The notes under the pieces: model-generated
What the model was told of the DNA's origin: nothing
Databases searched by the model: none
Seen by the model: the letters and a program-made list of their open reading frames with translations, nothing else
Program-made: the position numbers and the translations under genes
Shown here: positions 34,248 to 37,537 of the stretch, piece by piece
Layout: each line of letters begins with the position of its first letter
How positions within the stretch are numbered: the first letter of the stretch is position 1
IMG/VR virus record: IMGVR_UViG_3300020420_000671
DNA: 64,000 nt
Direction: 5' to 3' (one strand)
Source of the DNA: a virus
Lineage: Duplodnaviria; Caudoviricetes

Positions 34248-35435
34248 ATGTCAGAACTACTAGAAAGTCGCTGGCAGGATACGAAAACTGCACTTCTAGA
34301 AGGCCTCGAAGGCAATAAAAAGTCAGTTATGGGTGTTACATTAGAAAACACTCGTAAGTACTTGGCTGAGGCCGCAACAGCAGGTGCATCTAGTGCAGGC
34401 AACGTTGCTACACTAAACAGAGTGATCCTTCCAGTAATAAGAAGGGTTATGCCTACGGTTATCGCTAACGAATTAGTTGGTGTACAACCTATGACAGGCC
34501 CTGTGGGACAAATCCACACACTAAGAGTAAGATATGCTGACAGTATGGCATCATCTGCAACAGCTACTACAGCAGGCGAAGAGGCATTAAGCCCATTCAA
34601 AATTGCTGAGGGCTATTCAGGTGCTGGCGATGCGGCTACTTACAACGACAAAACAGCTAACACAACAGCTTCTTTAGAAGGTGTAGCTGGTAAGAGATTG
34701 TCAATCCAGATCTTAAAGCAAACAGTCGAAGCAAAAACCAGAAAGCTATCAGCTAGATGGACTTTTGAAGCGGCTCAAGATGCTCAAGCACAACAAGGTA
34801 TTGATATTGAAGCAGAAATTATGGCGGCATTGGCGCAAGAAATTACTGCTGAAATTGATCAAGAGATTCTTTCATCTCTACGTACTTTGGCTGGAACAGT
34901 CGAAACTTACGATCAGGCGGCTGTAAGTGGTACAGCAACTTTTGTTGGTGACGAACATGCGGCATTAGCTGTTCAAATCAACAGAGTGGCAAACTTAATT
35001 GCGGCTAGAACAAGACGTGGTGCTGGTAACTACGCAGTGGTATCACCATTTGCGTTAACATTACTACAGTCTGCTACAACTTCAGCGTTCGCAAGAACAA
35101 CTGAAGGTACTTTCGAAGCTCCAACTAACACTAAAATGGTTGGAACACTTAACGGTGCGATGAAAGTATACGTAGACGCTTATGCGGCGGATAGTACAGA
35201 AGTATTGATTGGATACAAAGGTTCAAGTGAATCTGATGCTCCAGCATTCTACTGTCCATACATTCCGTTAATGTCAAGTGGCGTTGTATTAGATCCAAGC
35301 ACATTTGAGCCAGTAGTGTCATTTATGACAAGATATGGTTACATTGAGCTATCTAATGTGGCATCATCACTTGGTAACGCGGCTGATTACCTTGGCGCAG
35401 TAGCAATTACTAACGGCAACGTATCATTTAGCTAA
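34248..35435 (+). CDS. gp23: Major capsid protein (T4 gp23-like)
   Basis: GVQPMTGPVGQIHTLR, KTRKLSARWTFEAAQD, EITAEIDQE, FYCPYIPL, FMTRYG. Confidence 0.95.
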   Translation: MSELLESRWQDTKTALLEGLEGNKKSVMGVTLENTRKYLAEAATAGASSAGNVATLNRVILPVIRRVMPTVIANELVGVQPMTGPVGQIHTLRVRYADSMASSATATTAGEEALSPFKIAEGYSGAGDAATYNDKTANTTASLEGVAGKRLSIQILKQTVEAKTRKLSARWTFEAAQDAQAQQGIDIEAEIMAALAQEITAEIDQEILSSLRTLAGTVETYDQAAVSGTATFVGDEHAALAVQINRVANLIAARTRRGAGNYAVVSPFALTLLQSATTSAFARTTEGTFEAPTNTKMVGTLNGAMKVYVDAYAADSTEVLIGYKGSSESDAPAFYCPYIPLMSSGVVLDPSTFEPVVSFMTRYGYIELSNVASSLGNAADYLGAVAITNGNVSFS

Positions 35436-35456
35436 TACCTAAACGACGACAAATTT

Positions 35457-35485
35457 AAAAAGGGCGACTTGTTCGCCCTTTTTTT
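35457..35485 (+). terminator. Intrinsic terminator after the capsid gene
   Basis: AAAAAGGGCGA-CTTGT-TCGCCCTTTTT with a 7-T run. Confidence 0.9.
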
Positions 35486-35518
35486 ATGGATTTTGGTAAA
35501 CAAAATACAAAAAAAGTG

Positions 35519-35547
35519 TTGACAAATGCTTTTTTCTCTGTTATATT
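35519..35547 (+). promoter_or_regulatory. Sigma70 promoter with extended -10, facing a non-coding unit
   Basis: TTGACA (35519-24), 17 nt, TATATT (35542-47), preceded by TG at 35539-40. Confidence 0.8.
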
Positions 35548-35583
35548 GTTTACATAAGCTAAAAACTTGTAGCTAGAGTTTTT

Positions 35584-35774
35584 AAATAGTGCAAGGAAGA
35601 GGCGTTTACCAGAGCGTCGAACTTGGCTGTTTAGGGGTGGTACCCAGGCTTGGTAGTAGAAATACGCTGAGTCACATCGCTCTACCGAGCGGAAACAGGC
35701 TCCCTGGTTATCAGAATGGCATCTGTGGCGAGGGGTTGTAGGTATAACCGAGTCCTACCTATTATTGCTTATTT
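35584..35774 (+). ncRNA. Candidate ~190 nt structured RNA gene, family not recognised
   Basis: Bounded by its own promoter and terminator; no ORF; hand count 92/180 GC over 35581-35760; closing stem 35584-94/35765-74 plus seven internal stems. Confidence 0.75.
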
Positions 35775-35775
35775 T

Positions 35776-35814
35776 AAAAGGTGTGCAAGGAAACTTGTAT
35801 ACCTTTTTCCTTTT
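35776..35814 (+). terminator. Intrinsic terminator of the ncRNA unit
   Basis: 14 bp stem AAAAGGTGTGCAAG-GAAA-CTTGTATACCTTTT followed by TCCTTTT. Confidence 0.8.
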
Positions 35815-35912
35815 CTGATAAATACAATGTCTAAGAGAGAACCTCTGAGATGAGGACTTATGCTGTTTAACCCACAGCGTAGACCTAGAACGTCTAACAT
35901 AAGGAGAAAAAA

Positions 35913-36530
35913 ATGGGAAGACCTATTAATAAAAAACACATTGGTGATGGAGCAGGTAAAATCCAAGTAACTGCGGTTAAATTCGCATCTGGTGGAGAAG
36001 TTACTACTGAGTCACATATTGTGTCACAAAGATCAACAAGAAAATTCATCGTAACTGATGGAAGTAAAACAGAAACTTGTACACTTGTAAACAAGTCAAT
36101 CGGTGGCTTAGGTGCTAGTGAATTCTGCATCAACGTAACTGACAGTGACGGTGTTACAAAACAAGTAACCAAGTTAATGAACAGAAAAATGCAACTTGAA
36201 GGTGCTTCTAACCATAAATGGGCTAGATCATCAACAGGTACATCTGAAGCGATTGAAAAAGCGATTACTGGAGCAACAGCGGCAAATCCATGTGTTATTA
36301 CATCAAATGGACACGGCTTTGTTAACGGAGATAAAATATCTATCCGTGGCGTAGTTGGAATGGTTGAGCTAAACACTGAAACTGCTTACACAGTGGCAGG
36401 AAAAACAGCTAACACATTTCAGTTATCAGGTGTAAACAGTGGCGGCTTTACTGGTTATACATCAGGCGGTATTGCAACTAAGGCGGCGGCTGAAAGCGGC
36501 GGCATTGTAGTTGACGCACAGGCATCGTAA
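35913..36530 (+). CDS. Virion structural protein with a beta-rich C-terminal module
   Basis: Late box ATAAATA 35818-24, RBS AAGGAG; ITGATAANPCVITSNGHGF..GMVELN..YTV module typical of phage structural proteins. Confidence 0.7.
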   Translation: MGRPINKKHIGDGAGKIQVTAVKFASGGEVTTESHIVSQRSTRKFIVTDGSKTETCTLVNKSIGGLGASEFCINVTDSDGVTKQVTKLMNRKMQLEGASNHKWARSSTGTSEAIEKAITGATAANPCVITSNGHGFVNGDKISIRGVVGMVELNTETAYTVAGKTANTFQLSGVNSGGFTGYTSGGIATKAAAESGGIVVDAQAS

Positions 36531-36543
36531 GATAAGATATAAA

Positions 36544-36570
36544 TGTTGTGGGGGCAAGTTCCCCACAGCA
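36544..36570 (+). promoter_or_regulatory. Strong intergenic hairpin (attenuator or stabiliser)
   Basis: TGTTGTGGGG / CCCCACAGCA 10 bp stem without a U-tract, just before the RBS of 36587. Confidence 0.5.
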
Positions 36571-36586
36571 ATTTAAGGAATTGTAA

Positions 36587-37537
36587 ATGTCAAAGAATTT
36601 AAATGTAAACAGCGGTAATTATACCATAAGAGTGGCAGATGGTAACACTATTACATTGGATACCGGAGCAACTGGTACTACTACGTTAACCGGCAACTTG
36701 ACTGTTTCTGGAACAACTACAACAGTAAATTCTTCTAATTTAAATTTAAAAGATAATATCATAAAAATTAATGATGGTGAAACAGGTAGCGGCATTACAT
36801 TAAACACAGCTGGATTACAATTTGATAGAGGGTCACAACAAGATGCGTTGTTCTTATTTGATGAGCAAACATCACATAACGATCCTGTAACACAAACTGT
36901 AAGAGCAGGTACTTTTACGTTTAAAGATAATTCAGGTGCTATAAGAGGAATACTAACAAATAGTATATCAACAGGCGGTGGAGATTTGTATCTCATAAAC
37001 AGCGGTACTGGAGTGATTAATGTTAGTGGAACAAACAATTATGAAACACAAGTTACAGCAGATGATGATATTCCAAACAAAAAATATGTTGACGATGCTA
37101 TAACAACAGGTATTCAAACTATTCAGATTACTTCTGTTGCTAGAGGAAACACAGCAGTTAACCTTTTTGATGATAGTTTAGATGCCAGCATAAGTGCTAT
37201 TAGATTTACTGTTGACGGAAATGAAAGAGTTTTAATTAAAAATAGTTCAACTGAAATTGAAAGCATCAGTTTTCAAGATAATTTAATTACAACAACATCC
37301 AGTGGAGCAGATTTAACTCTAAGCAGTAATGGTAGTCCTTTTGTAAAAATAGACGGATTACTTAGATTACCCTTACAAGATGATAGTTCAACAGTAACTT
37401 ATTCACCCACACACGTTGCTGTATATGCCAAAGATCCTGATAAAGGAAAAACAGGAGTGTGGTACAAGAATAAGTATGATCATGAAGATGAATTGATAAG
37501 TACTAATAGATCATTGCTTTATAGTATGTTATTTTAA
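36587..37537 (+). CDS. Virion structural / fibre-associated protein
   Basis: GNLTVSGTTTTVNSSNLNLKDNII and IPNKKYVDDA are fibre-type repeats. Confidence 0.65.
   Translation: MSKNLNVNSGNYTIRVADGNTITLDTGATGTTTLTGNLTVSGTTTTVNSSNLNLKDNIIKINDGETGSGITLNTAGLQFDRGSQQDALFLFDEQTSHNDPVTQTVRAGTFTFKDNSGAIRGILTNSISTGGGDLYLINSGTGVINVSGTNNYETQVTADDDIPNKKYVDDAITTGIQTIQITSVARGNTAVNLFDDSLDASISAIRFTVDGNERVLIKNSSTEIESISFQDNLITTTSSGADLTLSSNGSPFVKIDGLLRLPLQDDSSTVTYSPTHVAVYAKDPDKGKTGVWYKNKYDHEDELISTNRSLLYSMLF

Follow-up and report, generated by a model that had tools for sequence, protein, structure and literature searches.

A copy of the manA RNA family arranged as a free-standing early gene behind the capsid gene of a marine jumbo T4-like phage

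The manA motif is a structured RNA known since 2010, when it was reported in marine metagenomes, in T4-like cyanophages, and in two gamma-proteobacteria; its position in 5' UTRs led to its rating as a probable riboswitch (Weinberg et al. 2010, PMC2864571). It has been an orphan riboswitch candidate since then, and no ligand has been reported for it since 2010 in the literature that we searched. In 2026, manA RNAs were found to assemble in vitro into pentamer-based octamers and decamers and into a 60-subunit T=1 cage (bioRxiv 10.64898/2026.07.01.735769). The contacts between molecules are L5-L7', L8-L9', and L1-L1' in the RNA A0F1, and L5-L7', L3-L8', and a GNRA L6-receptor contact in the RNA pho34 (bioRxiv 10.64898/2026.07.01.735769). 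These oligomers, including the cages, have been seen in vitro only, at high RNA and Mg2+ concentrations, and with family members other than the one studied here. The words covariation, in vivo, and physiological are absent from the main text of the preprint, which still labels manA a putative cis-regulatory element (bioRxiv 10.64898/2026.07.01.735769).

Here, we analysed a 64-kb stretch of viral DNA (IMG/VR record IMGVR_UViG_3300020420_000671), referred to below as the window. Its source is a marine jumbo T4-like phage that occurs in many seawater metagenomes. We found that positions 35519-35814 hold a new copy of the known manA family, arranged as a free-standing early gene. Three points of biological context for manA emerge. 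In this phage lineage, the RNA forms a full gene that brings along both a promoter and a terminator. The cassette is optional and goes with no fixed neighbouring gene. Finally, the loops by which molecules hold on to one another in the solved structures show covariation among natural sequences, with L1 staying self-complementary. On these grounds, we argue that self-association is a selected property of the RNA and that the cis-regulatory label is doubtful.

Locus map and family membership

The following features were located around the RNA.

34248-35435, + strand: major capsid protein gene, the upstream neighbour (Pfam Gp23, E = 8.6e-97)
35457-35487, + strand: intrinsic terminator of the capsid gene, a hairpin and U run (-15.6 kcal/mol, z = -4.0)
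35519-35547, + strand: sigma70-type promoter TTGACA-17-TATATT with an upstream TG (TG-n-TATATT), 11/12 matches
35554-35772, + strand: mature RNA body in the minimum-energy fold, with the terminal stem AUAAGC (35554-59) / GCUUAU (35767-72)
35561-35768, + strand: manA RNA core (Rfam RF01745) by cmscan, covering model positions 1-192 (the full model)
35776-35812, + strand: intrinsic terminator of the RNA gene, with a 14-bp stem (35776-35807), a GAAA loop, and a U run
35818-35825, + strand: ATAAATAC, a T4-late-promoter-like box for the next gene, conserved as GATAAATAC 3' of the terminator in relatives
35841-35915, + strand: freshwater-2-like leader (RF02980) of the downstream late gene, outside the manA unit (46.1 bits)
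35913-36530, + strand: downstream gene, a probable virion structural protein (Pfam E1_FCCH, 2e-11; PHROG 584, tail category, 4e-9)

The capsid gene shares about 67% nucleotide identity with the capsid genes of jumbo phages. A first-pass annotation of the window, made from the sequence alone, had drawn this part of the locus as a capsid terminator, a sigma70 promoter, about 255 nt without an ORF, a second terminator, and a late-promoter-like box, and all of these were present. Transcription of the manA unit is predicted to start near 35552-35554. The stem of its terminator (35776-35807) together with the U run has an energy of -18.2 kcal/mol (z = -5.8). Boxes of the ATAAATAC type were not more frequent across the window than expected by chance.

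The freshwater-2 match in the window lies below the gathering score of 49.9 bits, and relatives score 54-77 bits at the same place. The gene after the capsid gene has freshwater-2 (RF02980) as its conserved leader (for example, L001:5702-5784 and L060:4774-4857); the motif begins just past the late-promoter-like box GATAAATAC and extends to the ribosome-binding site and the ATG. A literature search on the freshwater-2 motif returned nothing relevant. In several relatives, the capsid gene is separated from the manA promoter by a glutamine riboswitch aptamer (RF01739; 47-58 bits; L070:2734-2783, L007:3972-4021, L001:5234-5281, L018:5666-5713, and L005:5233-5280), which the window lacks. This makes the spacer 3' of the capsid gene a hot spot for structured-RNA cassettes.

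Cmscan against Rfam matched the RNA to manA at E = 7e-14, with a score of 59.0 bits where the gathering score is 55.2, and manA was the only Rfam family above threshold in the window. The score is modest compared with about 100 bits for a cyanophage manA copy (PMC9964418); among relatives with the RNA at this locus, the scores run from 37 to 80 bits, and this range links the window copy to canonical manA. The first-pass annotation had taken the stretch for an RNA of unknown kind and had set a clear known-family match beforehand as the outcome that would speak against its novelty; the cmscan search that it suggested returned just such a match, full-length and above the gathering score, and the claim of novelty has to be given up.

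The window RNA shares with the described motif (Weinberg et al. 2010, PMC2864571) the nine-helix layout, the AGUG junction, L5 of the form GURGUR, the GNRA loop L6, and an ACC-type L7, and both occur in T4-like marine phages. In the cmscan alignment and in a loop table of 61 relatives, the signatures of the window copy were read as the AGUG junction, GUGGUR in L5, a GNRA L6, and ACC in L7. These loop and junction signatures agree with the published construct sequences, against which our loop numbering was also confirmed. The usual L1 of the motif is a GACG tetraloop, whereas the L1 of the window is a larger loop with a 6-nt palindrome. In addition, the motif is catalogued as a cis-regulatory element of 5' UTRs, whereas the window copy is ended by its own terminator and the gene after it has its own promoter. 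The 5'-UTR position (Rfam type Cis-reg, an annotation and not a structural criterion) is therefore not found here, as a strong terminator (35776-35812) and a separate late-type box precede the next gene.

The helices and loops of the window RNA are also those of the assemblies solved by cryo-EM, manA_A0F1, manA_67AA, and manA_pho34_A767. A0F1 has GUGGUG in L5, ..ACCA.. in L7, and GAAA in L6; pho34 has GUUGUG in L5 and GACA in L7, as in one subgroup of the relatives studied here. The following elements of the fold are used below.

35561-35583, + strand: P1 hairpin, whose loop L1 holds the palindrome UAGCUA (35570-75); relatives have palindromes in L1 as well
35607-35612, + strand: loop L3, UACCAG, invariant or nearly so in the near clade, on a stem that varies
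35637-35642, + strand: loop L5, GUGGUA, aligned with the consensus GUGGUG
35659-35662, + strand: L6, a GNRA tetraloop GAAA in the loop table, capping P6 (35647-54/35666-73 and 35656-58/35663-65)
35682-35687, + strand: loop L7, CUACCG, co-varying with L5
35716-35721, + strand: loop L8, AUGGCA, of the long P8 hairpin (35701-35735), with co-varying complementarity to L9
35743-35753, + strand: loop L9 of P9 (GUAGG 35738-42 / CCUAC 35754-58), from covariation and the loop table

A search with the capsid protein gave 80 related IMG/VR loci, and a covariance model was then built from eight copies of the RNA. Scanning with this model found the RNA in 21 loci in full and in 2 in truncated form, always on the + strand behind the capsid gene. 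Standard pairs filled 93% of the alignment cells in 11 helix segments, compared with 35-43% in controls with slid partners, and 53 of the 58 base pairs had changes on both sides across relatives; the alignment was fitted to the manA model, which biases these pair statistics in the model's favour. The terminal stem reads AAUGC/GCAUU in the phage Mosig and takes other complementary forms in other relatives, and L6 is GAAA or GAGA in most of them.

Covariation supported seven of the eight stems that the first-pass annotation had drawn: GGCGTT/AGCGTC, CTGTTT/AAACAG, GGG/CCC, GGCTTGGT/GCTGAGTC with its GAAA cap, the CGCTC/GAGCG hairpin, the 35701-35 hairpin, and GTAGG/CCTAC. Its closing stem, 35584-94/35765-74, was not supported; the pairings with support are those of 35585-89 with 35759-63 and the terminal stem 35554-59/35767-72. 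Minimum-energy folding alone gave a further candidate, 35584-91/35625-32, that would replace P2 and P4; it was rejected for want of covariation. The annotation had placed the RNA on the + strand, rightly so, as only this strand folds better than shuffled sequences (z = -4.4, compared with -0.07 for the - strand).

Two short ORFs, of 50 codons (35589-35741) and 45 codons (35716-35853), overlap the stretch, which could accordingly be read as a small protein-coding gene or as a DNA-level element with no RNA gene at all. However, neither ORF is conserved, nor is any other in the roughly 255 nt between the promoter and the terminator. Close relatives differ in this stretch by single-base indels and by the compensatory changes noted above, and the strand-specific folding and the full covariance-model match also speak for an RNA. 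We regard the coding or DNA-level reading as effectively refuted.

The transcription unit and its neighbours

The first-pass annotation had described a stand-alone RNA gene, and the promoter and terminator that belong to the RNA itself bear this out: the RNA is a transcription unit in its own right and does not form the leader of the next gene. Read by eye, the promoter GGTTGAC-17-TGnTATATT keeps a constant distance to the RNA in nearly all of some 60 relatives; L119, L133, and L146 are the exceptions, with upstream sequence of another kind. With a stricter automatic pattern, 45 of the 60 were matched. We relied on the reading by eye, as the automatic patterns missed TATAGT boxes as well as terminators with a broken U run. 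The fixed distance of the promoter implies that the fold starts with the first bases of the transcript. At the other end, an intrinsic terminator follows the RNA by 5-12 nt in all 18 of the capsid-linked relatives; the sequences of its stem are unrelated among the 18 loci, and its pair probability in the full transcript is about 1.

At the RNA level, metatranscriptome contigs from three studies cover 35551-35783 and span the folded RNA; one of them starts at 35551. Contigs of the capsid gene stop near 35448, and those of the next gene start at 35843-35847. The RNA-library contigs leave 35449-35550 and 35784-35842 uncovered, but without a DNA control such gaps are no evidence of transcript ends, and the contig boundaries are a weak hint of them. 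Some read-through of the terminator in the window is possible.

A cis-regulatory leader, or orphan riboswitch, would work differently: its ligand-bound fold would set how much transcription passes the terminator at 35776-35812 into the downstream gene. This would agree with the Rfam type 'Cis-reg' and with the rating of 2010 (PMC2864571), and GUGCAAGGAA, which occurs both at 35589-98 and in the 5' arm of the terminator (35784-93), could allow alternative pairing. However, when the terminator arms were compared with the RNA body in the 18 capsid-linked loci, no antiterminator signal was found, that is, no excess of complementarity over shuffled arms (z from -2.7 to +1.5). Together with the terminator probability of about 1, this result argues against an attenuating riboswitch. 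The RNA is also conserved between relatives whose terminators are unrelated in sequence, the downstream gene has a late-type box and a leader of its own, and the ligand search had come back empty. We therefore consider a riboswitch unlikely at this locus. An antiterminator formed through the GUGCAAGGAA repeat (the P2/P3a junction and the 5' arm of the terminator) was rejected in particular: relatives with altered P3a or altered terminators lack matching changes on the other side, as in L007 and L018, where P3a has changed and the terminator has not followed. The repeat is not kept in relatives and is probably due to chance.

What follows the RNA varies within the family. About half of the 61 copies have no terminator and run into a TATAAATA box and an ORF, straight into an ORF (as in Mosig), or into a tRNA-Gly. 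Continuation into an ORF is what a leader would show, and as terminator-less copies exist, a leader role may apply to some members of the family. However, the downstream partners (the structural protein, rubrerythrin, tRNA-Gly, and others) are unrelated and not functionally coherent. In one subgroup (L107, L129, L090, L089, L126, L114, L091, and L140), an exact TATAAATA comes right after the RNA and is followed by a conserved ORF whose product begins MNTSIAAL; an early manA transcript would here enter a gene that also has a late promoter. In L075 (5499-5573), and also in L092 and L105, a tRNA-Gly (UCC) gene begins 6 nt past the manA RNA. The tRNA of L075 lies before the terminator of the unit, so that one transcript carries both RNAs.

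Of 51 related capsid loci, 17 contained the cassette, with a distance to the capsid gene of 127-1020 nt, and elsewhere it precedes unrelated genes. Its scattered presence and variable distance indicate that it is optional and independent of capsid function. The fold and its place next to the promoter stay constant, and the downstream partner changes; an autonomous RNA module fits this pattern better than a regulator of one pathway.

The position directly behind the capsid gene in these 17 loci could also be taken to mean that the RNA serves the capsid, as a scaffold or in the manner of the packaging RNA (pRNA) of phi29. The phi29 pRNA is transcribed from an early promoter and multimerises by intermolecular loop pairing, and loop-loop contacts and an early-type promoter are what the two phage RNAs have in common. 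The pRNA differs in fold and in the type of phage and has no similarity to the RNA in sequence or model; an Rfam search of 34500-37000 gave no pRNA match up to E = 10. Moreover, 34 of the 51 related capsid loci lack the RNA, in Mosig and others it adjoins replication or metabolic genes, and its promoter is of the sigma70 type, not the late type. To our knowledge, packaging of the T4 type needs no RNA. A capsid-linked function is thus highly improbable.

Pairing between the loops

The loops were compared in 61 distinct full-length copies from a pattern scan. An exact complement of the central triplet of L5 was found in the L7 of the same copy in 45 of the 61, compared with a mean of 19.6 when partners were permuted, and 0 of 5000 permutations reached the observed value; the permutation tests of loops ignore phylogeny, so that their significance is overstated here and below. 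The pair occurs in five states (GGU/ACC, AGU/ACU, UGU/ACA, UGC/GCA, and UAU/AUA), and in the window UGGUA of L5 pairs with UACCG of L7. RNAalifold likewise pairs the columns of L5 and L7. With an initial set of 17 sequences, this pair was not distinguished by a run-length permutation test (316/2000); it stood out only with the larger set and the position-specific test.

When own partners were compared with permuted ones in the 61 copies, the z value was 8.7 for L8-L9, 6.1 for L3-L8, and 2.7 for L3-L5. The complementarity of L8 and L9 co-varies in many forms, and in near relatives L8 is a second UGGUA loop. The first-pass annotation had proposed that TACCA (35607-11, in L3) and TGGTA (35638-42, in L5) form an intramolecular kissing pair. 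Their complementarity stands as a fact of the sequence; as a specific pair it gains little from the family (the z of 2.7 above) and is not the best-supported assignment, as L5 co-varies with L7, which is a second loop with ACC besides L3. In the window RNA, L3 has 5 bp of complementarity to L5 and, weakly, 3 bp to L8, and it is able to compete with L7 for L5.

In the cryo-EM assemblies, molecules are joined by the very loop pairs for which covariation is seen here. Those assemblies were obtained in vitro from other sequences, and several details differ: in the window L8-L9 and L3-L8 are weak, with 2-3 bp each, L3 can pair with L5 as well, and L1 is a palindromic loop in place of GACG.

Covariation fits pairing within a molecule and pairing between molecules equally and cannot separate the two. 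The RNA might accordingly act in trans as a monomer, as a decoy or sponge for a host protein or nuclease, with its loops joined in intramolecular tertiary pseudoknots. A stand-alone unit with an early-type promoter would suit such an RNA, the drawing of 2010 has a 'pseudoknot?' of L5 and L7 inside one molecule (PMC2864571), and the L5-L7 and L8-L9 covariation is as compatible with it as with self-association. However, the contacts lie between molecules in every solved manA structure (bioRxiv 10.64898/2026.07.01.735769), and a self-complementary L1 cannot pair within one molecule. We consider the monomeric RNA rather unlikely, though less so than the riboswitch.

L1 is long (7-9 nt) in the clade of the window, and 26 of 27 long L1 loops contained a Watson-Crick palindromic hexamer, compared with a mean of 6.3 for shuffled loops. 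Four forms were seen: UAAUUA, UAGCUA (35570-75 in the window), AUUAAU, and UUAUAA. As self-pairing of such a loop requires a second molecule, the palindromes are the most specific sign of selection for pairing between molecules, and among the loop data they alone argue specifically for it. The L1 palindrome could instead be a DNA-level site for a dimeric protein.

A possible mechanism and a cultured relative

We think it fairly probable that the locus is a gene for a free-standing manA RNA that self-associates through its loops and acts in trans. Host sigma70 RNA polymerase would start at about 35552-54, at the first base of the fold, and transcription would end at the intrinsic terminator (35776-35812), giving a discrete RNA of about 255 nt with both ends paired together. 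The nine-helix manA fold would then expose complementary loops: L5 (35637-42) and L7 (35682-87), L3 (35607-12) and L5 or L8, and L8 (35716-21) and L9, as well as L1 (35570-75), which would be complementary to itself. By analogy with the solved family members, these loops would most likely link individual RNA molecules to one another in closed, pentamer-based oligomers, mainly through L5-L7' and L1-L1' and with weaker contacts of L3, L8, and L9. As a free product the RNA would act in trans, and it would not switch the late gene downstream of it. Among the roles listed in the first-pass annotation, packaging RNA, riboswitch, and ribozyme have found no support, and a trans-acting decoy or scaffold may still apply.

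It is possible, though we put this forward only tentatively, that selection keeps the contacts between molecules and that marine phages build RNA-only cages in infected cells early in infection. If so, manA would be the first RNA cage of natural origin that functions in living cells, and the cages could be a sequestering compartment or a multivalent decoy for a host factor.

Among cultured phages, a blastn search with the L005 manA copy gave no match, but Pelagibacter phage Mosig EXVC030M carries an unannotated manA copy (MT647606.1, 108169-108352; L081:2482-2689). It has 76% identity to the window RNA, 64 bits in Rfam, and the same TTGACA-17-TATATT promoter; its L1 is palindromic (AUUAAU/UAAUUA), and its L3, L5, and L7 loops are as in the window. 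Unlike the window copy, it lacks a terminator and continues into the ORF for rubrerythrin; the gene on its other side is a hypothetical one. As Mosig on HTCC1062 is a cultured phage-host pair with a close manA copy, the question of self-association in infected cells is directly testable.
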